Source of the DNA: Patescibacteria group bacterium
Lineage (GTDB): Bacteria; Patescibacteriota; Microgenomatia; UBA8517
DNA: 64,000 bases
Reading direction: 5' to 3'
Assembly (NCBI GenBank): GCA_038061225.1
Contig: JBBTZT010000003.1
Coordinates: 113,092-177,091 of the forward strand
Positions 2,889 to 63,302 of this stretch are shown one piece after another. The translations under genes and the position numbers were made by a program. Each line of letters starts with the position of its first letter. Within the stretch, counting starts at the first letter, position 1. The notes under the pieces were generated by a model, which saw only the letters and a program-made list of their open reading frames with translations, was not told the DNA's origin and did no database searches.

Positions 2889-3419
2889 ATGGATAGCAAA
2901 GAAAATTCAGACAAGTTTACAAATTTTACAACAAGTGAGGATTATTTTGATCCTGCAATTATTTCACTTGTTTTGGAAAAGGCAAGAAAAAATGAAAGAG
3001 GTAGATTTAACTTAAGAATTCATGAAAATGACGATTCAAGACAACACCTATTAATTAATGCAATTGTAGAAAATAACTATATTAAGCCACATATGCACAG
3101 TGAAGAAAACAAAACAGAAATGTTTAGAATTTTAAAAGGTGAAGCATATCTTGTTTTTTTCAATGATTCAGAAGAAATATCAAAAATAATTAAACTTTCT
3201 GATAAAATTGATGGTAGAAAAACTGCACGTGTCAAATCAGGCCAAATGCATACAGTAGTTTGTGAAGAAGATATTGTGTTTCTGGAATCAAAAAAACAAC
3301 CAAGTGGATATAGAAAAGACGACGATAAATCTTTTGCCTCTTGGGCACCAGAAGAGAATACTGAAGAAGGTTTGATATATTTTCAAGGATTATTAGCCAA
3401 AATTAAACAATCTTATTGA
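2889..3419 (+). CDS. WbuC-family cupin-fold metalloprotein (O-antigen/rhamnose cluster associated)
   Basis: Motifs RFNLRIH...Q..L.NA......YI.PH.H and FASWAPEE typical of the WbuC family. Adjacent to RmlC and RmlD. Confidence 0.6.
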   Translation: MDSKENSDKFTNFTTSEDYFDPAIISLVLEKARKNERGRFNLRIHENDDSRQHLLINAIVENNYIKPHMHSEENKTEMFRILKGEAYLVFFNDSEEISKIIKLSDKIDGRKTARVKSGQMHTVVCEEDIVFLESKKQPSGYRKDDDKSFASWAPEENTEEGLIYFQGLLAKIKQSY

Positions 3420-7645: not shown

Positions 7646-8534
7646 GATTAAATTGTGCAAATATAGCTTCATCAGATAACTTTGATGCTTTTATTTCCTT
7701 TGCTCTTTGTTTTAACATTATTCTAAATCTGCCAAGTGCCATTATTATAATTCTAATGTATCCTGGATGTTTAAGTGATCTTGAGATCAAACCAATTATA
7801 TGCTTTTTAATTAGATTTTTACTATGTATGTTTTTCCAAAGCATCAATAACTGATTTCTTTCTTTGACTCTTGCAACATAAATCTTAGGAAATTTTGAAA
7901 TTGTAGATTCATGTTTATGGACAACTTTTCCCCTGGGTTCCCATAAATTTATATACCCTCTTTTCGCTGCTCTGTAACATAAATCAATATCCTCCCAATA
8001 GAATGGAGATAATAACTTTTCATCCATACCTTCAAGTTCTTCCCAAATACTTCTCCTAAATAAACCGCTTCCTCCGCTGACATAAAAACTTGTGTGTGCA
8101 CCTTTAGTTTCAGCATTCATTCCTAATTGAATATATCCATCAGCAAATGATCCTTTGGCTCCGCCGTAACCTTCTTCATGAGTTGAAACTGCAAATACTT
8201 TTGGATTTTTAAAATGGGGTAGAAGTGGTTCAAGAAAATCCTCATTTGGAATTACATCAGTGTTAATTAATAGTATTATGTCTCCTTTGGCTACTTTTGA
8301 ACCTGTATTTACAGCTGCTGAAAAACCCCTGTTGTTTCCATGTTTAATTAACTTTATTGAATTTTTATAATTTTTTTCTATAAATGAAACACTATTGTCC
8401 CAACTACCATCATCTACAACGATGACCTCAACTATATGATTTTTTGGATTATATACGGCCTTAAAAAGTTTTGGTAAATTCTTTTCCATTATTAATTTAC
8501 CGTTAATGTTTGGAATAACAACAGATACTTGCAT
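7638..8534 (-). CDS. GT2 family glycosyltransferase; inverted paralog of 29774..30682
   Basis: VSVVIPNING...VVDDGS...NRGFSAAVNTG...INTDV. Roughly 55-60% identity by eye to the + strand gene at 29774. Confidence 0.75.
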   Translation of the reverse strand: MQVSVVIPNINGKLIMEKNLPKLFKAVYNPKNHIVEVIVVDDGSWDNSVSFIEKNYKNSIKLIKHGNNRGFSAAVNTGSKVAKGDIILLINTDVIPNEDFLEPLLPHFKNPKVFAVSTHEEGYGGAKGSFADGYIQLGMNAETKGAHTSFYVSGGSGLFRRSIWEELEGMDEKLLSPFYWEDIDLCYRAAKRGYINLWEPRGKVVHKHESTISKFPKIYVARVKERNQLLMLWKNIHSKNLIKKHIIGLISRSLKHPGYIRIIIMALGRFRIMLKQRAKEIKASKLSDEAIFAQFNHE

Positions 8535-13297: not shown

Positions 13298-14784
13298 AAA
13301 TTGAAAATTATCGACCAGCTATGCTGTGGAAATTAAAAATTACTGATTTTATAAAAGCTAATTGGTTATTAATTACAATATTATTGATTGGAAGTTTTCT
13401 TCGTTTATATAAAATCAGTGCTTATATGACCTTTTTAGGTGATGAAGGAAGAGATGTGTTAGTTGTTAGAAACTTACTAGTACATTTTGATCCCATATTG
13501 ATAGGTCCTGGAACTTCAGTTGGAGATATGTATTTAGGTCCACTTTATTATTATTTTATGGCTCCATTTTTATTTCTTTCTAATTTTTCTCCCGTTGGTC
13601 CTGCAGTAGGAGTTGCCCTTTTAGGCATTGCAACCATATATTTAGTTTATGTAACTGGCCATGATTGGTTTGGTAAAAAAGCTGGCTTAATTGCCTCTTT
13701 GTTTTTTGCCATTTCCCCTACAGTAATTATCTATTCCCGTTCATCTTGGAATCCCAACATAATGCCTTTTTTTGCACTTTTATCTATTTTTTCAATTTGG
13801 AAAGTTTGGAAAGAGAAAAACTATAAATATTTAATATATTCTGCTATTTCATTTGCATTTGTACTTAATTCTCACTATTTAGGTGTTTTATTATTGCCAG
13901 TATTATTTATTTATTGGTTTTTGTCGCGCCCCCCTATACGCTATACGCTATACGCTATTGCACTATTCTTATTTTTAATGTCTCCAATTTTAATTTTTGA
14001 CTTAAGACATGATTTTATGAATTTTAATGCCTTGATTAACTTTTTAAATTCAAACGGAAACAACTTAGGATTTAGTTTAAGTGGGTTTATTACAAAAATT
14101 TATGGAACATTTGAAATTATAATTAATAGTTTATTAATATCTAAAAATTTACAATTTGGAAGATATGTTTCTCTAGGAATAATGCTATTTTTAGTTTTTG
14201 TTTTAACAAAGAAGAAATTCAACATACTACTTCTATGGCTTGGCTTTGGAATTATAGGCTTCGGATTATATAATCTGTCTATATATGATCATTATTTTGG
14301 ATTTTTATTTGCCGCGCCATTTTTATTAATCGGAGGATTCATCGAAAATATTTTTGAAAATTTAAGTAAAGCGGGAAATTATGTTTTATTGTTAGCAATT
14401 TTATTATTGTTTATTGTAAATGTAATCAATAATCCATTAAGAAACAGTCCTAATAATCAAATGAAAAGAGCAGAAAATGTTGCTAATAAAATTATTGCAG
14501 AATCAAAAGATCAATATTTTAATATTGCTGTTGTTGCAGAACAAAATTATGAAGATGGATATCAATATTTTTTAGAAAAAAATAATTCTAAAATAATTGA
14601 AATTGATGCGCAACTTCCTGAGACAGTTGCTGATCAACTTTTTGTAATTTGTGAAAAAGTAAAAGAAAAATGTGACCCCACTCATTCATCTAAGGCAGAA
14701 GTGGCTAATTTTGGTTGGAGTATAATCAGCGAGCAATGGACTGTAGACGGAGTGCAGTTATATAAATTAATACATACAAAATAA
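13294..14784 (+). CDS. GT-C fold membrane glycosyltransferase, family A paralog 1 (ArnT/PMT-like, DE motif)
   Basis: FLGDEGRD first-loop motif and about 12 TMs. Paralogous to 15757, 17253 and 27577. Confidence 0.55.
   Translation: MKIENYRPAMLWKLKITDFIKANWLLITILLIGSFLRLYKISAYMTFLGDEGRDVLVVRNLLVHFDPILIGPGTSVGDMYLGPLYYYFMAPFLFLSNFSPVGPAVGVALLGIATIYLVYVTGHDWFGKKAGLIASLFFAISPTVIIYSRSSWNPNIMPFFALLSIFSIWKVWKEKNYKYLIYSAISFAFVLNSHYLGVLLLPVLFIYWFLSRPPIRYTLYAIALFLFLMSPILIFDLRHDFMNFNALINFLNSNGNNLGFSLSGFITKIYGTFEIIINSLLISKNLQFGRYVSLGIMLFLVFVLTKKKFNILLLWLGFGIIGFGLYNLSIYDHYFGFLFAAPFLLIGGFIENIFENLSKAGNYVLLLAILLLFIVNVINNPLRNSPNNQMKRAENVANKIIAESKDQYFNIAVVAEQNYEDGYQYFLEKNNSKIIEIDAQLPETVADQLFVICEKVKEKCDPTHSSKAEVANFGWSIISEQWTVDGVQLYKLIHTK
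13934..13958. repeat. 7-bp tandem repeat (CTATACG)x3.5 inside the CDS 13294..14784
   Basis: Direct reading of the sequence. Confidence 0.9.
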
Positions 14785-23330: not shown

Positions 23331-25014
23331 CCTAATAATAATTGGAACTATCACATGGTCTTTGACTATGGTAAGAAGTGGACTGCTTTATAAATTTGGT
23401 TATGGATTTTGGGGACCAAATGGCCATGATGGTATTTGGCACATAGCTCTTTCTAATAGTCTTTCTAAAGGAACTTTAGAAAATCCAATTTTTTCTGGTT
23501 CTTTGTTGCAGAATTATCACCTTGGTTTTGATCTGCTCTTAGCTTTGTTAAATAAATTAACAACAATTCCTATTAGTATTTTGTATTTCCAGATTCTGCC
23601 TCCTATTTTCGCTTTAATGATTGGTTTACTAGTATATTTATTTGTTTTAAATTGGAGAGGATCTAAAAATGAAGCACTATGGTCTACAGCCTTTGTTTAT
23701 TTTAGTTCATCGTTTGGATTTATTATTACATTTTTAAGAGATAGAGTTATCACAGGTGAGTCAATGTTTTGGTCACAACAATCTATCTCTACTTTAGTTA
23801 ATCCTCCTTTCGCACTATCTCTAATATTTATTTTATCTGCTCTTATCTCTTTACAAAAAAAGAATTTATTTTTTAGTATTATATTTTTTGGAATATTAAT
23901 TCAAATTAAAGCTTATGCCGCTATTCTTGTTCTTGCTGGTTTGTTTATCTCTGGTCTGTATTCATACATCTTCCATCATAAATCTTACATCTTAAAAGTC
24001 TTTCTTGCTTCACTTTTTTTAAATTTAATTTTGTTTGTGACAACAAGGAGTGACGGCTTGTCAACGTTTGTTTGGCAACCTATGTGGTTTTTAGAAACTT
24101 TAATGTCCTATTCAGATAGATTTGGTTGGGAAAGGCTTTATTCTGCAATGACAACTTATAAAATGGGGCATATTTGGTTTAAAGAAATTTTGGCATATTC
24201 ATTAGCTTTTGCAATTTTTATACTGGGTAATATGGGAGTGCGTATTATTGGATTTTATTATTTTTTAAAAGTACTTAAAAATAAAATCAAAATTGATGAA
24301 ATTTTAGTATTTATTACTACTATTTTGTTAATGGCGATTATAATTCCAATGTTTTTAGTTCAAAAAGGTACGCCTTGGAATACTATTCAATTTTTCTATT
24401 ATTATTTATTCTTTTCCTCAATTTTTGCAGGTATATCTATGGATTTACTTACAAACAATAAAAAACGAATAGTTAGAGTTGGTTTAATGACTTTATTTTC
24501 TATGTTTACAATATTTGGAGCATGGTCTACCTTGCAACATTATTTACCTAAAATGCCACAATCTATGGTCTCAAATGAAGAATATGCCGCCTTAGATTTT
24601 TTGACTAAACAAACAGATGGAATAATTTTTACTTATCCATTTGATGAGAGTAAAGCCATTTTAGCTACTAAAAACCCTCCTCGTCCACTTTATTTCTATG
24701 AATCAACATCATATGTATCAGCTTTTACTCATAAACCAGTATTTCTTGAAGATCAGGTAAACTTAAACATCATGGGCTATAGCTGGGAGAATCGCAGAGA
24801 ACAGACGTTGTGGTTTATCTTAAACCTTGATAAAGAGGCGGGTAGAGAGTTTTTGGGTCGCAATAATATAAAATATTTGTATTTAGTTAAAGAAGCTTCA
24901 CCTCTTTTTGGAGAGCTACTTAGGTTAGGTTCGGCTGAATTAGATCTAAAGAAGATTTTTGAAAATAAAAAAAGTATAATATACCAATATGGCAAAGATT
25001 TCGGTAGTAATTAA
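23293..25014 (+). CDS. Polytopic membrane protein with C-terminal extracytoplasmic domain, family E paralog 1 (uncharacterised; possibly a polymerase/ligase-like GT-C)
   Basis: Motifs GHDGIWHIAL and ENPIFSGSLLQNYH shared with 38446..40281 (-). Confidence 0.5.
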   Translation: MLKKVTKQFSLVSLIIIGTITWSLTMVRSGLLYKFGYGFWGPNGHDGIWHIALSNSLSKGTLENPIFSGSLLQNYHLGFDLLLALLNKLTTIPISILYFQILPPIFALMIGLLVYLFVLNWRGSKNEALWSTAFVYFSSSFGFIITFLRDRVITGESMFWSQQSISTLVNPPFALSLIFILSALISLQKKNLFFSIIFFGILIQIKAYAAILVLAGLFISGLYSYIFHHKSYILKVFLASLFLNLILFVTTRSDGLSTFVWQPMWFLETLMSYSDRFGWERLYSAMTTYKMGHIWFKEILAYSLAFAIFILGNMGVRIIGFYYFLKVLKNKIKIDEILVFITTILLMAIIIPMFLVQKGTPWNTIQFFYYYLFFSSIFAGISMDLLTNNKKRIVRVGLMTLFSMFTIFGAWSTLQHYLPKMPQSMVSNEEYAALDFLTKQTDGIIFTYPFDESKAILATKNPPRPLYFYESTSYVSAFTHKPVFLEDQVNLNIMGYSWENRREQTLWFILNLDKEAGREFLGRNNIKYLYLVKEASPLFGELLRLGSAELDLKKIFENKKSIIYQYGKDFGSN

Positions 25015-25900: not shown

Positions 25901-26598
25901 CCGCCATAGTTATTTTTGGAGGTAATTATAACAAAAAGTTATTGGAAAGCGCTAAAAAATCAGTTTCTTGGTGTAGCGAATTAATTTTAATTAATGGGAC
26001 TAAAGGAAATTTTAGCGATTGGAGAAATGAAGGATTAAAAAAAGCAAAAGGAGATTGGGTTTTATATGTAGATAGTGATGAGGAAATTTCTCATGCTTTA
26101 TATGAAGAAATTTTGTCAACCGTCAACCGTTCACCGTCAACCGTTCACGCTTTCGCAATCCCACGAAGGAACATTATTTTTAACAAAGAATTTAAATACT
26201 CAGGTCAATATCCTGATTATCAAAAAAGGTTATTTAAAAAAGATAAATTAACAAAATGGATTGGTGAAGTTCATGAGGAGCCAATTGTCGATGGTGAAAT
26301 TGGATATTTGAAAAATGCGATAATTCATCACAAAAATATGACAATAAGTGAGATGGTTGAAAAAACAAACAATTGGTCTGAAATTGAAGCAGAACTTATG
26401 TTTAAAGCTAGTCATCCTAAAATGAATTTTATTAGATTCGCGTCTGCAGGATTTCGTGAATTCATGTTACGTTTTATTAAACAAAAAGCATTTTTAGATG
26501 GAAAAGAAGGTGTAATTTACGGAATATATCAAATATATAGTAAACTAATATCTTATTCTAAATTATGGGAAAAGCAGCTATCTACAATCCGTACCTAG
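25864..26598 (+). CDS. GT2-like glycosyltransferase (divergent N-terminus)
   Basis: YVDSDEE motif; C-terminal FLDGKEGV like 24989 and 46284. Contains the 14-bp tandem duplication. Confidence 0.5.
   Translation: MSKNNSKTKVSITAIVIFGGNYNKKLLESAKKSVSWCSELILINGTKGNFSDWRNEGLKKAKGDWVLYVDSDEEISHALYEEILSTVNRSPSTVHAFAIPRRNIIFNKEFKYSGQYPDYQKRLFKKDKLTKWIGEVHEEPIVDGEIGYLKNAIIHHKNMTISEMVEKTNNWSEIEAELMFKASHPKMNFIRFASAGFREFMLRFIKQKAFLDGKEGVIYGIYQIYSKLISYSKLWEKQLSTIRT
26115..26148. repeat. 14-bp tandem duplication GTCAACCGTTCACC x2 (plus a leading half-unit) inside the CDS 25864..26598
   Basis: Direct reading; encodes STVNRSPSTVHA. Confidence 0.9.
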
Positions 26599-29777: not shown

Positions 29778-30682
29778 GATCCAGCTACGCTATGAAAGTA
29801 TCAATAGTTATCCCAAATTATAATGGTAGAGAGTTTTTGGAAACAAATCTACCTAGTATTATTTCTGCACAGTATAATCCAAAGAATAAAATATTTGAAA
29901 TAGTGATAGTGGATGATCGTTCTACAGATGAAAGCGTTAGTTATCTTAATAATAAATACAAAAATATAATCCGTTTAATTAAACACACTAAAAACAGAGG
30001 TTTTTCTGCAACTGTTAATACAGGAGTTAGGTCGACAACAGGAGATTTCATTTGTCTATTAAATACTGACGTTTTACCTTCCACTAATTTTTTAGAATTA
30101 GTATTAGATAGTTTTAGAGATGAAAAAGTATTTGCAGTTTCTCTCCACGAAAAAAATTATGGTCCTGCAAGAGGTTATTTTGAAGATGGATTTATACAAA
30201 TAAGTTCAAAAAAAGAATCTAAAGAAATTGAAAATAGTTTTTATGTAAGTGGAGGAAGTGGTGTATTTAGAAAAAGTATTTGGCAAGAATTAGGAGGATT
30301 AGATGAAAAGTTATTATCTCCATTTTATTGGGAAGATATTGATATATGTTTTAGAGCAGCTAAAAGAGGTTACTTAAATTTATGGAATCCTTTTGGAAGG
30401 GTTGTTCATAATCATGAATCAACTATTTCAAAATTATCCAAAAAATATATAGAAAGAGTTCGTGAGAGAAACCAATTATTAATGCTTTGGAAAAATCTAC
30501 ATAGTAAAGCAATGTTTGAGAAACATTTAAATGGTTTGTTTAAGCGGATATTAAAAAATCCAAGATATCTTCGAATTATCTTAATGTCGTTATTTAAATT
30601 GGGCTTAGTTATTAAAGCCAGACGTAAGGAAATAAAAGAATGTATTGTTAGTGATGAAGCAGTTTTTCAAAAATATCAATGA
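29774..30682 (+). CDS. GT2 family glycosyltransferase; paralog of 7638..8534 (-)
   Basis: VSIVIPNYNGREFL...VDDRSTDES...NRGFSATVNTG...LNTDV. Confidence 0.75.
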   Translation: MRSSYAMKVSIVIPNYNGREFLETNLPSIISAQYNPKNKIFEIVIVDDRSTDESVSYLNNKYKNIIRLIKHTKNRGFSATVNTGVRSTTGDFICLLNTDVLPSTNFLELVLDSFRDEKVFAVSLHEKNYGPARGYFEDGFIQISSKKESKEIENSFYVSGGSGVFRKSIWQELGGLDEKLLSPFYWEDIDICFRAAKRGYLNLWNPFGRVVHNHESTISKLSKKYIERVRERNQLLMLWKNLHSKAMFEKHLNGLFKRILKNPRYLRIILMSLFKLGLVIKARRKEIKECIVSDEAVFQKYQ

Positions 30683-38495: not shown

Positions 38496-40281
38496 GTCCA
38501 ATATTTTGTAAGTCTATCTTTGGTCTTAATGCTTTTGGGAAATATAATAAATTGGTTTTAGTGGACGAAAGTGATTTACTGACTTCGTCAAGATCTTTGC
38601 TTTCAAAAATAATTTTTTTGATTTCAAGTCTTATGCGATAATCATAGCCCATGATGTCTACTTGTTCATAATCATCAAAATAAGTCCTCCTTGAAGAAAG
38701 AGCTGAAACATATGCAGTATCAAACCAATCCCATATATTTGGAATAGCTAAACCTTCATTTAAATATTGATTATATGGAGGTGTAACAATAACGGCATCT
38801 TTTCCAGAATTTTGTTTTATAAAATCTAATGCTTCAATTTCAGAGGAACTAATTTTAGTAAAAGCGGGTCGTAGATGACCTTCTGATATGTAAAATTCTT
38901 TTAATAATCTTACTTGTGTTGGAATCATTAGTATTATAATAATTGGAGTTAAAAAGATAAATTTTTTGTTAGTAACTATTTTTGAAACTGCTATTCCTGA
39001 TAATATTCCAAAAAGTAATATGAAATATTGTAAAAATTGTGAAGTATTACTGGCAATTCCTTTTTGTAAAAATAGAAGTGGTAATACAAGCGAAAGAACT
39101 ATAGATATTTTAAAAATTGCATTTGTTTTCACGAATTCCCATAAACCTAAAAATCTCATTCCCAAATTTCCAAAGAAGAAAATTAAAAAACCCATTCCTT
39201 CAAGCCAAATAACACGTTTCCAATTGTGTTCGTATATGTATGTTTGACGCCTTAATTCCCAATCTAATAGATTTAATCTTGATGGTTCAACTATCATTGT
39301 TCTGATATACCACCATGGTTCAAAGATTAAGAATGATTTTCCTGATGAATTTGGTAGATAAATAATAAGTGCTAGGATTCCACTAAATAAAGTAAGCAAA
39401 AATAATCTAAGGTCTTTATTAAATATTAAGTTCCAAGTTCCAATAATTGCTAAAGTTAATAGTAAAATAACTCCTGCATAAATTTTAAAAGCAGAAATTG
39501 TTCCAAGTAATATAAACGAAATTAGAAAATACTTAATTTGTAACTTCTTCTCTTTTTGTTCTAAAAAAGTTATCGTAAAGTAAATTGATGCTAAAAACAA
39601 AAAATTTGAAATAATTTGTGGAGGATTTCCACTTGAACTTTGTATTTGTGTTGCCCAAAAGACACTTTCACCTTTGTTGATTAAGTATCCAAAACTGCCT
39701 GCAAAATAGGTAAAAATAGTTGCCCAAATTCCGCTAGAGAAGTTTTTAGTTAATTTTTTTGTTAGGTAGAATACTGATGCTCCCAAAAATAGTGAATAGA
39801 AGAAAGGGAAAATTCTAAAATACAAATTAAAATTACTAATGTTTGTATATTTACTTACCATTGCAGGTAAGATGTCAGAGAAGAAATGATAATTTTTAAG
39901 AGGTGTACCTGCAAAAATTGGATTTTCTAATGGCCAACCTTTTTTCATTTCTTCCATTAAAGCAATATGCCATGTTCCATCATGTCCGTGGGCGCTCCAA
40001 AAGACTAAATCTCCTGATTTGTATATTCCACTTGGAGCAATGACTGCAAGCTGGCCAATGATACCAATTACAAATACTACTAATACTACCAATGAGCGAA
40101 TATTGAAGTTGATTTTGATTAATTTTACTGCTCTGATGATGGATTTAAGATATAGGATCAAAGATAAAAACAAAACAACAATGATTAAATAGGGAATATT
40201 TAGTACAATTAAGATATATGAAACTAGAGTGGCTAAAGAAAATACAAAAATTGATCCCATTAAGACAGATTCCATATTCAA
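38446..40281 (-). CDS. Family E paralog 2 (membrane plus C-terminal extracytoplasmic domain), the only minus-strand gene in the 12.6-63.3 kb block
   Basis: SAHGHDGTWHIAL, ENPIFAGTPLKNYH. Confidence 0.5.
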   Translation of the reverse strand: MNMESVLMGSIFVFSLATLVSYILIVLNIPYLIIVVLFLSLILYLKSIIRAVKLIKINFNIRSLVVLVVFVIGIIGQLAVIAPSGIYKSGDLVFWSAHGHDGTWHIALMEEMKKGWPLENPIFAGTPLKNYHFFSDILPAMVSKYTNISNFNLYFRIFPFFYSLFLGASVFYLTKKLTKNFSSGIWATIFTYFAGSFGYLINKGESVFWATQIQSSSGNPPQIISNFLFLASIYFTITFLEQKEKKLQIKYFLISFILLGTISAFKIYAGVILLLTLAIIGTWNLIFNKDLRLFLLTLFSGILALIIYLPNSSGKSFLIFEPWWYIRTMIVEPSRLNLLDWELRRQTYIYEHNWKRVIWLEGMGFLIFFFGNLGMRFLGLWEFVKTNAIFKISIVLSLVLPLLFLQKGIASNTSQFLQYFILLFGILSGIAVSKIVTNKKFIFLTPIIIILMIPTQVRLLKEFYISEGHLRPAFTKISSSEIEALDFIKQNSGKDAVIVTPPYNQYLNEGLAIPNIWDWFDTAYVSALSSRRTYFDDYEQVDIMGYDYRIRLEIKKIIFESKDLDEVSKSLSSTKTNLLYFPKALRPKIDLQNIGLTLFFENQEIEVWKIN

Positions 40282-41696: not shown

Positions 41697-43314
41697 ATTT
41701 ATATTAACATTAATTATTGCTTTAAGTTTCTTTTTACGAATATACAAAATTACTTCTATTCCACCATCCTTGAATTGGGATGAGACTTCAATTGGATACA
41801 ACGCATATAGCATTATGTTGACTGGCAAAGATGAATGGGGGGAGTTTGTGCCACTTCATTTTAAATCATTTGGAGAATATAAACTTCCAGCTCAAATATA
41901 TGCTTCAATTCCGGGAATATATTTTTTTGGTCTTAATGAATTAGGAGTTAGAATCACTCCTGTTGTTTATGGTACTTTAACCGTCTTACTTTTGTACTTA
42001 TTGTTGCAGCGACTTTACAACCTACGTCCTATATCCCTGATCGGCACGTTTCTTCTCGCAATATCCCCGTGGCACATACAATTAACAAGAGCTTCTTTTG
42101 AATCATCCTTTTCTCTGTTTTGGTTTTTGATGGCGATTTGGTTTTTGATTAAAGGATTTAAAAAACCAAAATGGCTTGTTATTTCAACAATTCCGTTTGT
42201 AATATCCGTTTATACATATAATACCGCTAGGGTTTTCACACCATTGTTCTTATTTGTGTTTTATCTTATTAACTACAAATTTATGTTAAAGAATTTTAAA
42301 TATGCTCTTTTTGGTTTTTTGACATTTGTAGCTTTAGCAATCCCAATTATTCCATTTGTTATATCGGGTGATGCTGCAGCAAGATATAAATTAGTAAGTA
42401 TTACAGATGACAAGGGACTAGTACCTAGAATTGAGGAGAGAAGAAATTTATCAAAACTACCACCATCTCTAACTAAATTAATACATAATAGATATACATA
42501 TAATACATATTATTTCTCCAAAAATTATTTAGCTCATTTTACTCCTAGTTTTTTATTTTTAGATGGAGCTGGACATAAACAACATCATGTTCAAGGCGTT
42601 GGGGAATTGTACTGGATCCAAGCACCGTTTTTGATTTATGGGTTGTATTTATTAATAAAAAGAAAAGATAGATCATTAAAAATTTTATTACCGTGGTTAC
42701 TTTTAGCTTTTGTACCTGTATCAATGACCAATGATAGTATTCCAAATGCGCTTCGCACTCTAATTGCTGTACCTGTTTACCAAATTTTTTCAGCAGTAGG
42801 AATATTTGAATTTTTTAAATTTAAAAGATACAAAAAAATAATTTTAAGTTTGTCTGTAATTTTGTTTATAGTTAATTTTTATATGTTTGCTATTAATCTC
42901 TATATCCTATACCCTATACGCTATTCAAAGGATTGGCAGTATGGCAATTCCCAAGTTGTAGAATATATAAAAAATAACCAAGATAAATATGATTTAGTTG
43001 TTTATACAAGAAGTTATGGTGAGCCACATATTTTTACTCTTTTTAATTTGAAATATGATCCCGCAAAATATCAAAATAGTCCAAATCTTAATCGTTTTGA
43101 AACTTTTGATTGGGTAAGAGTATTAAAATTTGATAAATACTATTTTCCAGATTTGGGAGATAAAGGAACAAAGTATGAAGATATAGTTCGCGCAAATCCA
43201 GACACAAAAATATTATTTGTAGGTAAGTCTGGTGATTTTCCAGAAAGTGCAATAATATTAGAAAGGATAAACTTTTTAAATGGTGAAGAAGCTTTTGAGA
43301 TTACTACAAACTAA
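41668..43314 (+). CDS. Family C paralog 2
   Basis: SLNWDETSIGYNAYSIM...DEWGEFVPLHFKSFGE. Confidence 0.55.
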   Translation: MRFSKAMKNRFILTLIIALSFFLRIYKITSIPPSLNWDETSIGYNAYSIMLTGKDEWGEFVPLHFKSFGEYKLPAQIYASIPGIYFFGLNELGVRITPVVYGTLTVLLLYLLLQRLYNLRPISLIGTFLLAISPWHIQLTRASFESSFSLFWFLMAIWFLIKGFKKPKWLVISTIPFVISVYTYNTARVFTPLFLFVFYLINYKFMLKNFKYALFGFLTFVALAIPIIPFVISGDAAARYKLVSITDDKGLVPRIEERRNLSKLPPSLTKLIHNRYTYNTYYFSKNYLAHFTPSFLFLDGAGHKQHHVQGVGELYWIQAPFLIYGLYLLIKRKDRSLKILLPWLLLAFVPVSMTNDSIPNALRTLIAVPVYQIFSAVGIFEFFKFKRYKKIILSLSVILFIVNFYMFAINLYILYPIRYSKDWQYGNSQVVEYIKNNQDKYDLVVYTRSYGEPHIFTLFNLKYDPAKYQNSPNLNRFETFDWVRVLKFDKYYFPDLGDKGTKYEDIVRANPDTKILFVGKSGDFPESAIILERINFLNGEEAFEITTN

Positions 43315-52998: not shown

Positions 52999-53741
52999 TA
53001 AACAAAAGTAAGAAATATTTGTCGATAATAGTACCTGCTTATAAACAGGAAAAAACTATTAAAAAAGATTTGAAAAATATCGAATCAGTAATGAGTAAGG
53101 GACTAGGAACATCATATGATTATGAAATAATCTGTGTTGTTGATGGTAAAGTTGATGGAACTCTGAAAGAGGCCTTAAAGATTAAATCAAGTAATATAAA
53201 AATGTACGGATACAATCAAAACAAAGGTAAAGGCTATGCTGTGAGATATGGAATGAGTAAAGCAAAAGGAGATTTAATTTCCTTTTTAGATTCGGGAATG
53301 GATATAAGTCCTAAAAGTATGATGATGCTTATGGCTCATATGGATTGGTATGATGCTGATATAATTGTGGGTAGTAAAAGGCATCCTGTTTCTCAGGTTA
53401 ATTACCCATTTATACGAAAGGTTTTAAGTTTGGGTTACTATTTTGGGGTAAAACTTCTTTTTGGTTTAAAACTTACTGACACACAAAGTGGAATAAAACT
53501 TTTTAAAAGAAAAGTGGTAGAAAAAATTGTTCCAAAACTTTTAGTTAAAACATATGCTATGGATATAGAAATGTTAGTTGTAGCGAAACATTTTGGATTT
53601 ACTAGAATTTATGAAGCTCCTATTGAGGTTGTGTTTAATAAAGAAACAAGTAGAATTAAGTGGAAAACAGTTTTTTGGATGCTTTGGGATACATTAGCTG
53701 TTTTTTATCGATTAAGAATCCTTCATTACTATGATTTTTAA
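52995..53741 (+). CDS. GT2 polyprenyl-phosphate glycosyltransferase (Dpm1/GtrB-like)
   Basis: LSIIVPAYKQEKTI...VVDGKVDGT...FLDSGMD...QSGIKLF. Confidence 0.65.
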   Translation: MINKSKKYLSIIVPAYKQEKTIKKDLKNIESVMSKGLGTSYDYEIICVVDGKVDGTLKEALKIKSSNIKMYGYNQNKGKGYAVRYGMSKAKGDLISFLDSGMDISPKSMMMLMAHMDWYDADIIVGSKRHPVSQVNYPFIRKVLSLGYYFGVKLLFGLKLTDTQSGIKLFKRKVVEKIVPKLLVKTYAMDIEMLVVAKHFGFTRIYEAPIEVVFNKETSRIKWKTVFWMLWDTLAVFYRLRILHYYDF

Positions 53742-55581
53742 AAAAATTATAATTCTTCTTATTATTTTTTTCTGTTCAGTAAAAACAGTGTCAGCATCCG
53801 ATAATAAATTTATTACTATAGTAAATCCTGTGAGAATTTCAAGATACACAACAACTTCATCTGAAAGTTTAAAAAGTGAATACAAAGCAGTAAAGAAATA
53901 TGGTTTTCCTGCAACATGGCTACTTACCTATGATGCTTTAAATAATAAAGATATTATTGATGAAATAAGAAAAATGGATACAAATCAAGAATTTGGCATT
54001 TTTTTAGAAGTAACCAAAACTTTTGCGTCTGAATCTGGAGTAGGATATCACGATAGTGGTTTTTGGCACCATGCAAGTGCTGTATTTCTTTCAGGATATA
54101 CACAAGAGGAACGGATAATACTAATAGATAAAGTTTTTGACAAATTCAAGCAAGAATTTGGGGCATATCCAAAATCGATTGGTTCTTGGTGGACAGATGG
54201 ATATTCTCTTTCATATATAAAAGATAAATATGGAGTAGTTGCAAATCTTGTTTGTTCTGATCAATTTTCAACTGATGGTTACCAACTTTGGGGTCAACCT
54301 TGGCAAATGCCATATTATCCGATTAAAAGCTACCCTGCAGTTCCTGCCTCAAATCTTCAGAATAAGTTAGATTTAGTAAATATTCAGTGGGCTTCAAGAG
54401 ATCCTTTAAATGGTTACGATAGTAGTCTTTATAGTACACAGGATTATTTAGTTGCTGAAAATAATTTAGATATAAATTATTTTAATAAACTATTAGATTT
54501 ATATTTAAACACAAATAATTTAAGTCAAATAACAGTAGGTCTTGAAGCTGATCTTGACCCAGTAGGTTACGCTGGAGAATTTACAAAACAAATAGAAATG
54601 GTTAAAGAATATTTAAACAAAGGCATAAATGTAGTAACGATGTCTGAGTTTTATGATAAATATAAAGAAAAATACCCCAACATCTCACCCAGTACTCAAA
54701 TAAAGTCAAAGGATTTATTAGGAAAAGATGTGGAAGCAGTTTGGTATAATAGTCCTTTTTATAGATTACATTACACTAAAAATATTGTTAACAATATTAT
54801 TCAGATAAAAGACATTAGAACTTACGGCAAAAATTTAATTGATCCCTATTTTGCATCACCCAATTATGAATTTAATTTATCTATAAATATTCCATCGATA
54901 ATAGATACTGTACAAAACCCAGAAGATGTTTGGATATTGCCTAAAGATTCAGAAATCATAACAAATGATAATAGTTTCATTATTAAAGGAAAGAATATAA
55001 AAATTCCAAAAAAAATTAAAAATGATCCACTAATTAATTTAAAAATAAATAAAAACGAAATAGAAGTTTCCTTTAAAACAATAGCCTTTAATAATATTGA
55101 AGGAGAAATTGTACAAGGGTTTACGTCTGAAGCGATACATTTTTTTAAAGCAAAAAAATCTATCCTCAAACTTATTACAGGTGTTGGATGGGATTATTTC
55201 AAAAAAATAGATTATCTAATCCCACAAGGCGAGATTTATGCACTTTCATATTTAAAATCTTTGCCACGGGGTAAGGTAATGGTGTTTGATAATGAGTGCT
55301 TACAGTGTTCTTGGCATACAAAAAATAAACCAATTGTTTTTGCCAATTTAAGAAGTTATGTTAAAAAATATTCTAAACATTCAATTGTGTACAACTCATC
55401 AGTCTTTAAGGCAAAGACAATTGAAGAAGCTCAAAAAGAATTTAAAAAAGTAAACGCAAAATATGTTTATCTGGTAAAATTTGAGCAGTATAAAGAAAAA
55501 CTTCCATTTTCACCAGGAGATTTGGGGATAGAAAAAATATATTCCAATGCAAATGCAGAGATTTGGGAGGTTAGTGATTGA
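53731..55581 (+). CDS. Secreted 616-aa protein of unknown function (signal peptide; possible carbohydrate-active domain)
   Basis: N-terminal signal peptide IILLIIFFCSVKTVSASD; Trp/Tyr-rich soluble domain. Confidence 0.45.
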   Translation: MIFKKIIILLIIFFCSVKTVSASDNKFITIVNPVRISRYTTTSSESLKSEYKAVKKYGFPATWLLTYDALNNKDIIDEIRKMDTNQEFGIFLEVTKTFASESGVGYHDSGFWHHASAVFLSGYTQEERIILIDKVFDKFKQEFGAYPKSIGSWWTDGYSLSYIKDKYGVVANLVCSDQFSTDGYQLWGQPWQMPYYPIKSYPAVPASNLQNKLDLVNIQWASRDPLNGYDSSLYSTQDYLVAENNLDINYFNKLLDLYLNTNNLSQITVGLEADLDPVGYAGEFTKQIEMVKEYLNKGINVVTMSEFYDKYKEKYPNISPSTQIKSKDLLGKDVEAVWYNSPFYRLHYTKNIVNNIIQIKDIRTYGKNLIDPYFASPNYEFNLSINIPSIIDTVQNPEDVWILPKDSEIITNDNSFIIKGKNIKIPKKIKNDPLINLKINKNEIEVSFKTIAFNNIEGEIVQGFTSEAIHFFKAKKSILKLITGVGWDYFKKIDYLIPQGEIYALSYLKSLPRGKVMVFDNECLQCSWHTKNKPIVFANLRSYVKKYSKHSIVYNSSVFKAKTIEEAQKEFKKVNAKYVYLVKFEQYKEKLPFSPGDLGIEKIYSNANAEIWEVSD

Positions 55582-55619
55582 TGTAAGATATAGGATGGAT
55601 GATGTAGGATATAAGAAGT

Positions 55620-55982
55620 ATGGAAAATAAAAACAGTTTTGAAAAACTTGATGCATGGAAGGAAGCACATAAACTTGTAATTGCAATTTACAAAGTAACT
55701 AAAAAGTTTCCAAATGAGGAAAAGTTTAGACTTATAGATCAGATTTGTAGATCAGTCTCGTCAGTAGCGGCTAATATAGTTGAGGGTAATTCAAGGCAGT
55801 ATAGAAAAGAATTTCTGCAATTTTTATATCTATCTAAGGGATCATTGGAAGAAACGAAATACCACTTATTGCTTGCTAGGGACTTGACGTATATCACTTC
55901 CAAAGAATATGGTAACTTTATAGATCAATGTAATTTAGTTGGTAGACTTATTGCTGGTTTGGTTAAATATCTTAGATCTTAG
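55620..55982 (+). CDS. Four-helix-bundle protein (TIGR02436; formerly '23S rRNA intervening-sequence protein')
   Basis: FEKLDAWKEAHKLVIAIYKVTKKFPNEEKFRLIDQICRSVSSVAANIVEGNSRQ...SKGSLEETKYHLLLARDL. Confidence 0.8.
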   Translation: MENKNSFEKLDAWKEAHKLVIAIYKVTKKFPNEEKFRLIDQICRSVSSVAANIVEGNSRQYRKEFLQFLYLSKGSLEETKYHLLLARDLTYITSKEYGNFIDQCNLVGRLIAGLVKYLRS

Positions 55983-56008
55983 ATCTTATATCATACATCT
56001 TAAATCAT

Positions 56009-57124
56009 ATGAACATATTAGTTTTTTCATGGCGTGATCCGAAACATCCCTTAGCAGGTGGGGCAGAGCAGTCTATGCATGAGCATATGAAAGGATGGGT
56101 TAAAGAAGGTCATTTCGTGACTTTATTTTCATCTCTCATCAAAGATTCTAAACAAATAGAATACCTAGATGGAATAAAAATTGTTAGAAATGGTAATCAA
56201 TATTTAGGAGTTCAGATCAAGGCGTTTTTTTACTATCTTAAAAATAAAAATAATTTTGACTTTGTAGTTGATCAATTTCATGGAATTCCATTTTTTACGC
56301 CACTTTATGTTACAAAACCAAAACTTGCAGTACTACAAGAAGTTGCTAAGGAAGTTTGGTTTAAAAATCCACTCAAATTTCCAATAAATTTTATAATTGG
56401 GTTTATTGGTTATATAACTGAACCGATAATATTTCTTTTTTACAAAAAAACACATTTTATGGTTGGTTCAAATTCAGCCAAAGAAGATTTAATTAAATTT
56501 GGTATAAAAGAAAAAAACATTACTGTTGTTCCACACGGTGTAATTTTACCTAAAAAGATACCTGAACATAAATTAACAAATCCCAAAATGATTACTTATT
56601 TTGGTCCACTAACTGCAGACAAAGGAATAATGGATGCAATCAAAACTTTTAATATTCTAAACAAAAAAGGGAATTATAGTTTTTGCATAATAGGTAGACC
56701 AGAAACTGATAGATATTACAAAAAAGTAATGCAAAAAGTAAGAAAATTTGATCTTAATTCAAAAATAGAATTCTGGAAACGACCAACCGATGAAGAAAAG
56801 TTTGAAATTCTTTCAAAGTCGTATCTACTAATTAATCCATCAATAAGAGAAGGTTGGGGTTTGGTCAACATTGAGGCAAATGCAGTTGGCACTCCTGTTA
56901 TAGCTTATCCATCACAAGGACTTATTGACTCAGTGAGCGATAACCTAAGCGGTGTTCTAACAAAAAACAGTACTCCAGAAGATTTAGCCATGGAAATTGA
57001 AAAATTAGTAAAAGATAAAGCAAAATATCAAAGATTATCAATTGGTGCAAAAAAATGGGCGAGTAGGTTTAGTTGGCAAAAATCAAGAAAAGAAAGCTTA
57101 AAATTAATAAACAGTTTGATATAA
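56009..57124 (+). CDS. GT4 family glycosyltransferase
   Basis: EGWGLVNIEANAVGTPVIA. Confidence 0.7.
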   Translation: MNILVFSWRDPKHPLAGGAEQSMHEHMKGWVKEGHFVTLFSSLIKDSKQIEYLDGIKIVRNGNQYLGVQIKAFFYYLKNKNNFDFVVDQFHGIPFFTPLYVTKPKLAVLQEVAKEVWFKNPLKFPINFIIGFIGYITEPIIFLFYKKTHFMVGSNSAKEDLIKFGIKEKNITVVPHGVILPKKIPEHKLTNPKMITYFGPLTADKGIMDAIKTFNILNKKGNYSFCIIGRPETDRYYKKVMQKVRKFDLNSKIEFWKRPTDEEKFEILSKSYLLINPSIREGWGLVNIEANAVGTPVIAYPSQGLIDSVSDNLSGVLTKNSTPEDLAMEIEKLVKDKAKYQRLSIGAKKWASRFSWQKSRKESLKLINSLI

Positions 57125-60488: not shown

Positions 60489-61173
60489 ATATTACTCCGA
60501 TGAGGTTCCAAAGATTTTAGATGTAGTCAAAAGAAAAAGAATTGGAAACCAAATCTTTAGAGTGTTAAAAATTCATTGTAAAAACTTGTCCAATTTGCGA
60601 GTTCTAGATTATGGCTGTTCAACTGGCGTGATATCAGATATCATTTCAAAAAAAACAAGATCAGTTGTAGGTATAGACGTCGATAAAAAAGCGATTACAA
60701 TGGCTAGAAAAAAGTTTAAAAGAAGTAATCTCAAGTTTAAGATGACAAATAGTATAAAGACAGACTTTAAAGATGAATATTTCGATATTATAATCGCAAA
60801 CCAAATCTATGAGTTTGTCGATAGCGATAAGGAATTGATGAAGGAGTTGTATCGGTTACTAAAGACTGGTGGGGTTTGTTTTTTTGGAGCTAGGAATAAA
60901 TATGCGATTATCGAGGCGCAATATAATATCCCTTTTTTGTCATGGTTACCGTTTCAAGTTCCAGGGTTTGTTGGAAAATACAGATCATACTTCGGTCTTA
61001 AAAGTTTAGCAAAAAATTTTACAATTCATGATTATACAAGTAATATTTTATTGGATCCAGTCAAGTATGGTTTTGACAAATTAGAAAAATATAAATGGTT
61101 ATTTAAAATATTACCCTTGAAATTGATTATATCGTTAATACCAAATTACATATGGATTTTAGAAAAAAAGTAA
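60481..61173 (+). CDS. Class I SAM-dependent methyltransferase
   Basis: VLDYGCSTGVIS motif I. Confidence 0.7.
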   Translation: MNKYYSDEVPKILDVVKRKRIGNQIFRVLKIHCKNLSNLRVLDYGCSTGVISDIISKKTRSVVGIDVDKKAITMARKKFKRSNLKFKMTNSIKTDFKDEYFDIIIANQIYEFVDSDKELMKELYRLLKTGGVCFFGARNKYAIIEAQYNIPFLSWLPFQVPGFVGKYRSYFGLKSLAKNFTIHDYTSNILLDPVKYGFDKLEKYKWLFKILPLKLIISLIPNYIWILEKK

Positions 61174-63302
61174 ATAAATTTACAAAAAAATATTGGGATA
61201 AAATTGCGATTAGTATTGTGCCAATATTATTTTTAATTATTGGAACAACTACACTCTCTGATTATGGAGTAAATTGGGATGAGCCATTCCATTTTATGCG
61301 TGGACAAGCTTATCTTCATTATTATCTTTCTGGTGGACAAAAAGATTATAAATCATTGCCTCCATATCCCAGAATAAATATTAACTGTGTCGACACTAAT
61401 AATCCTGCATGCGATTTTTCTCCTGGTGGCCCATCAGATAGAGAAAATTATAACGGGAGTAATTTAATTTATGAAGAAGCCATTAAGAAGCTGTATCCAA
61501 AAAACTCAAATATTTGGCGTAGTTATTATCAACATGACACATATAACTTTAATGAAATAATAAAAATAGAAAATGGACATCCAGCTGTAGGGGATATTAT
61601 GGCTGCATTTTTTAATTATGTTTTTTATCAAAAATTACACATATTAGGGGATATTGAGTCATATCACTTTTTCGAAATATTTACATCATTTCTTATTGTC
61701 CTTGGGGTGTCTATTATCGTTTATTTAAAATTTGGGGTTTTTTCTGCCATTGTATCTTCGTTTGCATTAGCATCCTATCCACTATTCTTCTCAGAGTCGC
61801 ATTTTAACATTAAAGATCCGCCCGAGACTGCATTTTTTGGATTAACAATAATTTTATTTTACCTTGGAATAACCAAAAGTAAATGGGTTTATTTAATACT
61901 TTCATCTATCTTTATGGCATTCGCAGTCGGAACTAAATTTAATGCCTTTTTTATCGTACCAATTTTGGGATTATGGCTACTTTATTATATATTTACTTCT
62001 GCTTGGAGAAAAAGAAAAAATATAGCCGTAATTATCAGTTTGATTTTATATCCATTCATTACAGTATTTGTTTTTTATATTTTATGGCCTTATCTTTGGA
62101 GCAATCCTATTGAAAACTTTTTAGACATAGTTTTGTTTTATAAACAAATTGGAATGGGTACGCCTGTTGAGATGTCACAATATATATATCATGGCTGGAA
62201 TACATACCCCATTGTTTGGATTGCATATACAACACCAATACCCATATTGGTGTTATCTATTATGGGTTTTTTTGTTTCAATTTATTTATTCCTCTTTAAG
62301 AAAAATAATTTTACCTTTTTAGTTATTTTGTGGTTTTCAACCCCCATGTTACGAGCTTCGTTTCCAAACTCAGCTATATATGGTGGAGTTAGGCAATTAA
62401 TGGAGTTTTTACCAGCAATGGCAATACTTGCAGGAATAGGTACATATTATTTCGTAAAAACAATGAAATACCATAAATCTATCATACTTGTTATTTTTTT
62501 AAGTATGTTATTTGTTACCCATGAAATGGTTAAAATTCATCCTAATCAGAATGTGTATTTTAATCAGATTGTAGGAGGTCTAAAGGGTGCTAAAGATAAA
62601 AAGATACCGTACTGGGGAAATTCATACGGTAACGCATATCAGCAAGGTATCGACTGGATAAACAAAAATGCCGAAGGTAATGCAAGGGTTGGTTTGCCTA
62701 TTTCTACAATGGGAAATTTACCTTGGATTAAATTTAGGTCAGACATTGAATTTAGTAATTCGAGTTGGAGTGGCCCTAAACATGGTGGTGAATATGAAAT
62801 TGAACTAGTTTTTGATTGGGCTCCTACTGCATGGTATAGCTTTGCTTATTACGATGTCTATTTAAATCCAGTTTTTGAAGTAAAAGTTGATAATGTTGCG
62901 ATTCTTAAAGTTTGGAAGAATGACAAAAAATATATTAAAGAAGGTTATGATAAAGAATTGGTATATTTTCCAAAGTTTGTTAAAAAAGAAAAAACAAGTT
63001 TATTTATAGATATTGGAAAAGAAATATATCTATCAAGAATTACTATTAACCATGGTAAATATGGCTGCTTTGTCCAAAAAGGTGGTTATATTTCGTTGTC
63101 TAGTAATGATAAAGATTGGATACGGGAAGTTGAAGCTATCGATTATCCACAGGTTCCACCAGCTGCGATCGGTATAACTGACACTAATTTTGTCTATCTA
63201 TTTGCGGCTAAAAAAGCACGATACATACTACTTGAAACAGCGATAGATAATTCCTGCTTGTTGAAAAAAAATAATCTTGAAATAAGAGGTTTAGCTATTT
63301 GA
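61152..63302 (+). CDS. Large GT-C membrane glycosyltransferase (GT39-like) with C-terminal extracytoplasmic domain
   Basis: DYGVNWDEPFHFMRGQAY first loop. Confidence 0.55.
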   Translation: MDFRKKVNKFTKKYWDKIAISIVPILFLIIGTTTLSDYGVNWDEPFHFMRGQAYLHYYLSGGQKDYKSLPPYPRININCVDTNNPACDFSPGGPSDRENYNGSNLIYEEAIKKLYPKNSNIWRSYYQHDTYNFNEIIKIENGHPAVGDIMAAFFNYVFYQKLHILGDIESYHFFEIFTSFLIVLGVSIIVYLKFGVFSAIVSSFALASYPLFFSESHFNIKDPPETAFFGLTIILFYLGITKSKWVYLILSSIFMAFAVGTKFNAFFIVPILGLWLLYYIFTSAWRKRKNIAVIISLILYPFITVFVFYILWPYLWSNPIENFLDIVLFYKQIGMGTPVEMSQYIYHGWNTYPIVWIAYTTPIPILVLSIMGFFVSIYLFLFKKNNFTFLVILWFSTPMLRASFPNSAIYGGVRQLMEFLPAMAILAGIGTYYFVKTMKYHKSIILVIFLSMLFVTHEMVKIHPNQNVYFNQIVGGLKGAKDKKIPYWGNSYGNAYQQGIDWINKNAEGNARVGLPISTMGNLPWIKFRSDIEFSNSSWSGPKHGGEYEIELVFDWAPTAWYSFAYYDVYLNPVFEVKVDNVAILKVWKNDKKYIKEGYDKELVYFPKFVKKEKTSLFIDIGKEIYLSRITINHGKYGCFVQKGGYISLSSNDKDWIREVEAIDYPQVPPAAIGITDTNFVYLFAAKKARYILLETAIDNSCLLKKNNLEIRGLAI

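Follow-up and report, generated by a model that had tools for sequence, protein, structure and literature searches.

A TIGR02436-family gene bracketed by inverted heptamer arrays in a glycosylation gene cluster of Patescibacteria: a candidate intervening-sequence-type cassette outside rRNA

The 23S rRNA intervening sequence of Coxiella burnetii has a length of 428 nt and contains an open reading frame (ORF), S23p, belonging to the TIGR02436 family (PMC4990558). Two to three tandem copies of GACAGAT and one degenerate copy are located right before the ATG of S23p, their number being variable among strains, and the ends of the element form a 28-bp terminal stem, within which RNase III cuts in vitro (PMC4990558). 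S23p-encoding intervening sequences of Leptospira and Brucella are cited in the same paper. Here, we describe a 430-bp cassette carrying a gene of this family, which was identified between two protein-coding genes of a Patescibacteria group bacterium in a 64,000-nt stretch of contig JBBTZT010000003.1 (GCA_038061225.1, positions 113,092 to 177,091; this whole stretch is called the window). By analogy with the Coxiella element, we interpret it as a candidate cassette of the intervening-sequence type whose host is an mRNA operon and not an rRNA gene; we assign this interpretation a probability of about 0.5.

Proteins of the TIGR02436 family are very common and several of their structures have been solved; their function is not known, and their genes, which are met inside unrelated operons, have sometimes been classed through guilt by association. 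The intergenic heptamer arrays of cyanobacteria, Xanthomonas, Geobacter, and Beggiatoaceae have stood for decades without explanation, those of cyanobacteria being known as STRR. Genes of the TIGR02436 family have been found wedged between cas genes, for example cmr3 and cmr2 (PMC3936711). Unexplained intergenic arrays have been reported from Nostoc (bioRxiv 10.1101/2022.06.06.494920), Xanthomonas (GGGAATC; PMC4692102), and Beggiatoaceae (TAACTGA; PMC4679880), and paired heptamer/octamer sites from Geobacter metallireducens (PMC2700814). Convergent inverted pairs amount to 70-75 in each of two Xanthomonas genomes (PMC4692102) and to 8, 21, and 24 in three Geobacter classes (PMC2700814). Such arrays were interpreted as G-quadruplexes, regulator sites, or translation signals.

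Anatomy of the cassette and its gene

The cassette consists of a gene encoding a 120-aa four-helix-bundle (4HB) protein and two inverted arrays of heptamers that abut or overlap the gene at both ends:

55579..56008, plus strand: whole cassette, 430 bp, from the stop codon of an upstream gene encoding a 616-aa protein to the ATG of a downstream gene encoding a family-4 glycosyltransferase (GT4); delimited by occupied versus empty junctions and by the inverted arms, and missing in one piece from relatives with an empty site
55580..55621, plus strand: 5' heptamer array of six units, GATGTAA GATATAG GATGGAT GATGTAG GATATAA GAAGTAT (sequence, repeat analysis)
55620..55982, plus strand: gene for the 120-aa 4HB protein (TIGR02436 / PF05635, the family of 23S rRNA intervening-sequence proteins; profile matches)
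55965..56006, minus strand: 3' heptamer array, inverted, reading GATTTAA GATGTAT GATATAA GATCTAA GATCTAA GATATTT on the minus strand (sequence, TRF)

The first unit of the 5' array was overlapped by the upstream stop codon TGA (55579-55581), and its last unit entered the ATG at 55620. The 3' array covered the final codons of the 120-aa gene (KYLRS*) and ended 2 nt 5' of the GT4 ATG at 56009; TRF reported a period of 7 with 5.4 copies and 83% matches at 55969-56006. The longest inverted pair joined 55579-55616 with 55970-56007 over 38 nt with 76% complementarity, so that the element has complementary termini enclosing the rest of it, as is the case in rRNA intervening sequences. When the two arms were joined by a loop, the folding energy was -31.8 kcal/mol, compared with -15.2 +/- 2.7 kcal/mol for 200 dinucleotide shuffles (z = -6.1), none of which folded as well.

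An earlier note on this DNA, made from the sequence alone, had described imperfect inverted repeats of about 17 bp around the gene. The upstream direct repeats were found as it gave them (GATGTAAGATATAGGA at 55580-55595 and GATGTAGGATATAAGA at 55601-55616), and so were the direct repeats ATCTTAG ATCTTAG at 55969-55982. The downstream inverted copy, GATGTATGATATAAGAT, was present as well, as the reverse complement of 55983-55999, 2 nt away from the position 55985-56001 assigned to it, and the near match, counted there as 15/17, was measured as 15/16 against the second upstream copy (one mismatch, 55984-55999). These repeats form only part of the feature, which is better described as two inverted arrays of about six heptamers each, a trait seen across the gene family and in the Coxiella intervening sequence as well.

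The unit consensus was GAT-N-TA-D, with a profile of G97 A97 T97 N42 T90 A88 D50 derived from 40 units of four orthologous cassettes, that is, a fixed core with two loose positions, 4 and 7. Tandem intergenic 7-nt units of this kind also characterize the STRR-like arrays of cyanobacteria. A search with the 16-mer, allowing up to three mismatches, yielded 14 matches in the window against 1.1 expected, most of which were self-overlaps inside the two arrays. Further copies of the terminal repeat, for which the earlier note had proposed a search, did not recur in any other intergenic region of the 64-kb window. The 16-mer matches at 23943-23996 and 40135-40169 and the period-7 repeats at 13929-13962, 26115-26144, and 42899-42927 were judged unrelated to the arms; all of these were in-frame coding sequence of longer genes, except that 40135-40169 was read as sequence, without translation. 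The period-7 repeats are near-perfect and lie within long ORFs: CTATACG x3.6 (13929-13962), CTATACC x3.6 (42899-42927), and GTCAACC x4.3 (26115-26144). The first two are located in genes of the PMT_2 family and are read in frame as ..RYTLYAI.. and ..LYPIRY.., and perfect heptamer repeats are unusual in coding DNA.

The 120-aa protein matched PF05635 with E = 8.6e-38 and 129.3 bits (cut-off, 33.8), residues 8-112 aligning with profile positions 1-105 of 106, and matched TIGR02436 with 122.5 bits (cut-off, 24). The PF05635 match spans nearly the full profile, and the assignment to a TIGR02436-type gene in the earlier note was borne out. A total of 382 homologues were found. Sequence homology to proteins in the PDB was detected for 2gsc (XCC0516; E = 2.4e-16) and 2rld (E = 3.4e-8), both of which contain five chains; judging from these homologues, the protein probably adopts a four-helix-bundle fold and may possibly form a pentamer. 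The ratio of nonsynonymous to synonymous substitution rates (dN/dS) against orthologues was 0.06-0.13. Such strong purifying selection indicates that the protein has a function of its own. A tblastn search of 50,697 phage records gave no match, and no relative was found in IMG/VR. An NCBI entry annotated as 'Patescibacteria group bacterium' was 100% identical to the protein, which was also present on metagenome contigs from the Hainich aquifer.

In terms of host site, the cassette differs from rRNA intervening sequences, which lie within a helix of a 23S or 16S rRNA gene: it was located between two protein-coding genes, and no rRNA family of Rfam reached its gathering score anywhere in the window. 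No promoter or terminator consensus was detected in the cassette beyond chance.

Heptamer arrays across the TIGR02436 family

The flanks of family genes were compared at 80 loci encoding family members in GTDB species genomes and at 170 control genes. The loci covered Patescibacteria, Nitrospira, Acidobacteriota, Chloroflexota, Bacteroidota, Omnitrophota, Planctomycetota, Verrucomicrobiota, Elusimicrobiota, and one metagenome-assembled genome of Methanobacteriota. As judged both by eye and by measurement, most of the 80 loci had tandem arrays just 5' of the ATG and, in inverted orientation, at or after the stop codon. Self-identity of the flanks was 0.59 / 0.61 at lag 7, compared with 0.36-0.45 at other lags. 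Arrays of period 7 or 8 on both sides were found at 44 of the 80 family genes (55%) and at nine of the 170 controls (5%; odds ratio 22, Fisher p = 2.6e-18). The period was 7 in approximately 86% of the arrays and 8 in the rest.

The nine controls with arrays on both sides included at least one divergent 4HB paralogue. In several others, the upstream arrays were C-rich, an orientation typical of the 3' arm of a neighbouring cassette, and these controls appear to carry such an arm. Among the nine, no other cargo gene in heptamer brackets was seen.

The two arms of a locus resembled each other more than they resembled the arms of other loci. The median inverted-repeat score of a gene's own flanks was 14.2, against 6.5 for flanks combined across loci and 6.5 for control genes; the median duplex energy was -32 kcal/mol for own arms and -20 kcal/mol for arms combined across loci; and the unit consensus sequences of two arms differed at 1.4 positions when both belonged to one locus versus 3.2 positions between loci. 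The units themselves varied greatly by locus, including TAGATNN, TAAGCTN, GTAAGTN, CAGTGGT, GGGACNN, GCCGGACG, and others. Polarity was conserved: the 5' arrays were G-rich and C-poor on the sense strand at 49 of 56 loci, as were the 3' arrays on the antisense strand at 52 of 56. The same design was found on annotated plasmids of two cultured cyanobacteria. In Nostoc punctiforme pNPUN01 (locus L176), TCAGGAG/TCAGAAT x8 preceded the ATG and an inverted array ran across the stop codon, and a plasmid of Calothrix brevissima (L177) carried GGGTGTA arrays.

On a contig binned as Methanobacteriota, a family gene with inverted heptamer arrays of TAGGTNN was observed (L038:2977-3342), which means either that the family occurs in an archaeon or that the contig was wrongly binned. 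In distant phyla, including Nitrospira and Verrucomicrobiota, family genes were observed to adjoin genes for a sugar-nucleotide epimerase, DegT, or a flippase (L031, L032, L048, L074, L076, L082, L087, L019), which suggests that they prefer, or survive better in, polysaccharide gene clusters.

Taken alone, the locus varies a type of element that is already known, and the family-wide coupling of inverted heptamer arrays with TIGR02436 genes is the more interesting result. We found no literature joining heptamer arrays with non-rRNA genes of the family, although our coverage was incomplete and a prior description is possible.

Orthologous cassettes, empty junctions, and gene content

The junction occupied by the cassette is formed by two genes on the same strand:

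53731..55581, plus strand: gene for the 616-aa upstream neighbour, with an N-terminal signal-like segment (gene scan, family profile scans)
56009..57124, plus strand: gene for GT4, the downstream neighbour and anchor of the empty-site comparison (PF00534, E = 1.1e-28)

No Pfam or NCBIfam family matched the 616-aa protein, the last codon and stop codon of which (GAT TGA) are heptamer-like. The placement given in the earlier note, a gene with its own flanks wedged between a gene for a secreted-looking protein and a GT4 gene, agrees with a discrete module bounded by arrays.

The 4HB proteins with 65-85% identity were all encoded directly upstream of the orthologous GT4 (L011-L015, L016-L018, L020, L106, L116, L128, L130, L135, L153). 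Nearly all of these cassettes had GAT-N-TA-D-type arrays on both sides, with varying unit numbers; the exception was L018, in which the 5' array was weak and the 3' array missing. Pairing of the arms was significant in seven of eight cassettes tested, that of the window included (z from -3.2 to -6.1), and weaker in L106 (-1.7). Pairwise identities of the 4HB proteins and of GT4 were correlated (Pearson r = 0.76), and synonymous divergence (dS) from L011 and L012 was 1.1-1.5 for the 4HB gene and 1.0-1.2 for GT4. The arrays were identical among 11 assemblies from one population, which differed only by two to four single-nucleotide polymorphisms, all outside the arrays. The low dN/dS, the GT4-like dS, and the identity of the arrays in the 11 assemblies together indicate that the cassette is old, under selection, and stable over short times.

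In L020 and L153, where the cassette lies just upstream of a GT4 start at 3333 and 3001, respectively, the C-terminus of the 4HB protein was divergent and shortened (..KSKSPKSYILNP) and the 3' array was a stub; these cassettes may be decaying. In one sub-lineage, a 12-bp hairpin was observed at the 3' end of the 616-aa orthologue, formed by the last codons and the first bases after the stop codon (L128:200-262, L130:~1180-1240, L016:~2930-2975). Compensatory changes occurred among the three (GAAATTTGGTCA/TGACCAAATTTC, GAGATTTGGGCT/AGCCCAAATCTC, and GAAATCTGGGTT/AACCCAGATTTC). This hairpin is located directly 5' of the 5' heptamer array and is absent from the window.

To identify occupied and empty junctions, 80 loci encoding GT4 orthologues were scanned with a 4HB profile. 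Most of them lacked the 4HB gene, including those with the closest GT4: L097 (82% GT4 identity), L099 and L141 (76%), L100 (75%), L101 (71%), and L103 and L104 (68%). At the empty junctions of L097, L099, L100, L103, L104, L105, and L110, which had the same neighbour genes, the upstream gene was separated from GT4 by 1-35 nt without heptamers, as in L100 (GAAAAATAGtATG); L101 and L141 showed the same direct junction within the short sequence available. The comparison of relatives for an empty site, which the earlier note had proposed as a check, was therefore positive. The C-terminus of the 616-aa protein was ...[S/D/A]D* in occupied loci, with heptamer-like codons (GAT TGA), and ...VE* or ...VEK* in several closely related empty loci (L099-L101), which places the left border of the cassette inside the last codons of the 616-aa gene.

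In a neighbour-joining tree of GT4, nearly every occupied locus or pair was sister to an empty one or grouped directly with one, L016 standing alone. This scattered distribution implies that gain, loss, or exchange by recombination took place about nine times independently at a single junction. The 616-aa gene was likewise present or absent between a family-2 glycosyltransferase (GT2) gene and GT4, independently of the cassette (L011, L097, L104, L106, L153), and all four gene orders were found: GT2-GT4, GT2-616aa-GT4, GT2-4HB-GT4, and GT2-616aa-4HB-GT4. The independent variation of the 616-aa gene marks the GT2-GT4 junction as a small hotspot of gene-content variation. Taken together, the cassette has long been resident at the junction, where its loss, regain, or exchange through recombination has occurred repeatedly, and it is a discrete, dispensable module without sign of current transposition.

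A hint of exchange between lineages was found for L116 and L130, in which the 4HB proteins were 90% identical with a dS of 0.46, whereas the adjacent GT4 proteins were 74% identical and their dS was saturated; the cassette, or GT4, may have been exchanged. A similar proposal for L128 and L135 (4HB 100%, GT4 84% identical) was rejected, since the mosaic of identity ignored the borders of the cassette: L128:1-2000 and L135:1750-3750 consisted of alternating blocks with 100% and ~80% identity independent of gene borders, which points to recombination of co-existing populations or to chimeric metagenome assembly.

The window had a G+C content of 30%, as part of a genome of the Patescibacteria (candidate phyla radiation, CPR), and nearly all of its large ORFs were on the plus strand. 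These ORFs make up a long island of glycosylation genes, in which numerous PMT_2 paralogues are joined by GT2 and GT4 genes and by genes for a flippase, an epimerase, and a DegT aminotransferase. About 14 same-strand genes encoding membrane proteins of ~500 aa were located at 13294-46287 and 61152-63302, and seven of the 10 scanned were PMT_2/PMT (GT-C) glycosyltransferase paralogues; for so small a genome as that of a CPR bacterium, this tandem expansion is very large. An inverted repeat of 303 nt with 79% complementarity was also observed (7788-8090 / 30236-30538, arms 22 kb apart), which presumably reflects paralogous genes on opposite strands.

Competing explanations and comparison with known systems

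In the proposed mechanism, the cassette, which sits at the junction of two same-strand genes of a glycan-biosynthesis operon, may have originated there by insertion. The lack of promoter-like or terminator-like signals within it makes transcription as part of the operon RNA most likely. In that RNA, the two arrays would pair in several registers and form a long imperfect stem, the base of which would bring the upstream stop codon beside the downstream ATG while the ORF forms the loop. The stem could serve as a substrate of RNase III, by analogy with the rRNA intervening sequences of Coxiella, Leptospira, and Salmonella, and could sequester the translation start of the ORF until it is opened or cut. 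As a module, the cassette was passed on together with the operon, and on many occasions related Patescibacteria lost or exchanged it.

The imperfect, periodic pairing is the main weakness of the intervening-sequence interpretation, and several observations count against it. In the window, the complementarity of the arms reaches only 76%, and mismatches recur at positions 4 and 7 of the unit. Arm mismatches at 55 loci were mostly transversions (170), and G:U-compatible mismatches were not in excess of A:C mismatches (63 versus 51, p = 0.30), so that nothing specific to pairing at the RNA level was seen and the RNA and DNA levels are indistinguishable in this way. The whole 471-nt cassette folded no better than shuffles (z = -0.36); its minimum-energy fold pairs both flanks, and the fold signal is restricted to the arms. 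No match to Rfam was found, with permissive filters on 55300-56300 or at gathering scores over the whole window. Among the 80 family loci, 27 (34%) had a one-sided array and nine (11%) none.

The imperfect periodic pairing, the transversion mismatches, and the absence of a G:U excess leave room for another explanation, in which the arrays act, instead of or besides forming a stem, as iteron-like protein-binding sites. A protein, possibly the putatively pentameric 4HB product, would read the conserved 5-nt core every 7 nt on one RNA or DNA strand, for autoregulation, protection or marking of the transcript, or another purpose. A unit with a conserved core and free positions fits this explanation, as do mismatches that are transversions as often as transitions, the preservation across the family of period and polarity and not of sequence, and the strong purifying selection on the protein. 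The homologous small four-helix-bundle protein Avd, which forms pentamers, acts as part of a complex that includes a reverse transcriptase and RNA. A binding partner not yet identified has been postulated for the Nostoc heptamers (bioRxiv 10.1101/2022.06.06.494920). Against these points, the units differ widely across loci whereas the invariant residues of the protein are constant, a spacing of 7 nt does not match the DNA helical repeat, and simple tandem sites would need neither the inverted arrangement nor the significant pairing of the arms. We consider binding sites a rather unlikely explanation of the arrays.

The earlier note had called the locus a candidate mini mobile cassette. Its discreteness and the empty sites in close relatives are real, and a DNA-level mobile element (MITE-like, that is, resembling miniature inverted-repeat transposable elements; insertion sequence-like; or a homing cassette), whose arrays serve as terminal repeats for a recombinase or transposase acting in trans, would insert repeatedly at the junction, which fits the scattered distribution on the GT4 tree and the occurrence of all four combinations of the cassette and the 616-aa gene. 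The L116/L130 comparison hints at exchange, in a similar operon, a 4HB copy with 64% identity was found at another junction (L019), and seven loci had two family genes within ~6 kb (L024, L030, L041, L050, L077, L078, L094). In L078, two family genes in tandem were observed, flanked by similar CAGTGGT/CGGTGGT-type heptamer arrays. Mobility of rRNA intervening sequences has been proposed before (Ralph and McClelland 1993, as cited in PMC4990558). Current or recent mobility was not supported, however. Neither a transposase nor a recombinase was found in or beside the cassette, no target-site duplication was visible at the junctions compared with empty sites, and no second copy of the cassette was found in another context, nor a multi-copy family in the 64-kb window. 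The closest 4HB homologues (at least 65% identity) were all at the same junction and co-diverged with GT4, and the arrays were identical in the strain-level assemblies. The inverted arms exist, but they are tandem arrays whose unit varies by locus, unlike the ends of a transposon family, and are therefore a poor fit to a shared transposase. The cassette is not an active transposon, and a DNA-level mobile element of any of these kinds seems less probable than binding sites.

In a further explanation, the repeats would be ordinary simple-sequence DNA prone to slippage, or an inverted repeat that arose by chance, unconnected to the gene. The genome is AT-rich, simple-sequence repeats of heptamers abound in some bacteria (PMC4692102, PMC4679880), and copy number does vary between orthologous loci. 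This explanation was largely refuted by the control-gene and cross-locus comparisons: arrays on both sides were about ten times commoner at family genes, the arms of one locus shared a unit that differed across loci, arrays were kept across orthologues with saturated synonymous sites, and the hairpin had a z of -6.1. A phase-variable contingency locus was rejected, as no variation in repeat number was found among the 11 assemblies, and chance or slippage is essentially excluded. Equally excluded, and refuted at this locus, is an Avd accessory protein of a diversity-generating retroelement, for which the weak matches to bAvd (PF22296, 39.4 bits) and to NF033474 (40.9 bits) fell below the curated cut-offs (40 and 80, respectively), with no reverse transcriptase among those neighbours within 3 kb on each side for which a Pfam family was recorded, no template/variable repeat pair anywhere in the window, and no match in the phage and viral collections.

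Beyond the intervening-sequence interpretation of this locus, we put forward a tentative generalization, which we consider less likely than not. Inverted heptamer/octamer arrays with a TIGR02436 gene may constitute a widespread, unrecognised class of nested elements in operon junctions and rRNA helices of bacteria and possibly some archaea, with the rRNA intervening sequences as the special case to have come to notice. Arms or ORF-less relics of such elements would then explain many of the intergenic heptamer arrays, among them cyanobacterial STRR, the GGGAATC pairs of Xanthomonas, and the paired sites of Geobacter, and the putatively pentameric protein would read the heptamers of its own element and contribute to the processing or propagation of that element. 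If the arrays and the gene are one element, the puzzles of the protein family and of the heptamer arrays both become open to simple experiments; rRNA-type intervening sequences would then also live in mRNAs, where they may affect the expression of operons. For annotation, a 4HB gene with inverted period-7 arrays should be treated as a self-contained insert and not as a member of the surrounding pathway or defence system.

Compared with MITEs and small insertion sequences, the cassette is likewise a short module with terminal inverted repeats that some relatives have and others lack at one and the same site, but its termini are locus-specific tandem arrays, neither a target-site duplication nor a transposase nor, in the window, a multi-copy family was found, and its cargo is a conserved protein under purifying selection. 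Avd (PF22296, NF033474) resembles the 4HB protein as a homologous small four-helix-bundle protein that works with nucleic acid; unlike in Avd systems, the profile scores were below the cut-offs and neither a reverse transcriptase nor template/variable repeats were detected, and heptamer arrays are no described feature of diversity-generating retroelements.

The intergenic heptamer arrays share with the cassette tandem units of 7 nt, sometimes 8 nt, near start and stop codons, a length that varies between relatives, and sites between consecutive operon genes (moaA-mosC, cbiG-cobQ, proB-proA). The unit of Geobacter class 3, TTCTGAM, is also the unit in the arms of the Nostoc punctiforme cassette. 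In contrast to the cassette, no TIGR02436 gene between the arms is mentioned in the Xanthomonas, Geobacter, Nostoc, and Beggiatoaceae papers. Inverted TTCTGAM pairs ~100 bp apart were observed between consecutive operon genes of G. metallireducens (~338111/338212 and 529164/529246; PMC2700814, supplementary file 7); with this short distance, the checked class 3 pairs appear to lack an ORF and may be ORF-less relatives of the cassette.

The closest known system is the 23S intervening sequence of Coxiella. The two differ in host site, which is an intergenic operon junction here and helix 45 of 23S rRNA there, and in their arms, since the 3' arm of the cassette is also a clear heptamer array and its stem is 76% complementary, compared with one mismatch and one bulge in 28 bp in Coxiella. 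The ORF is under strong purifying selection here, whereas that of Coxiella was reported as decaying and untranslated, and cleavage by RNase III, demonstrated there, would take place here by analogy. In both systems, an ORF of the same protein family is contained in an element of nearly the same size (428 nt in Coxiella and 430 bp here), tandem heptamers abut the ATG with a copy number that varies between lineages (two to three units of GACAGAT plus a degenerate one there and six units here), and complementary termini can form a stem around the ORF of what is regarded as a selfish or dispensable insert.

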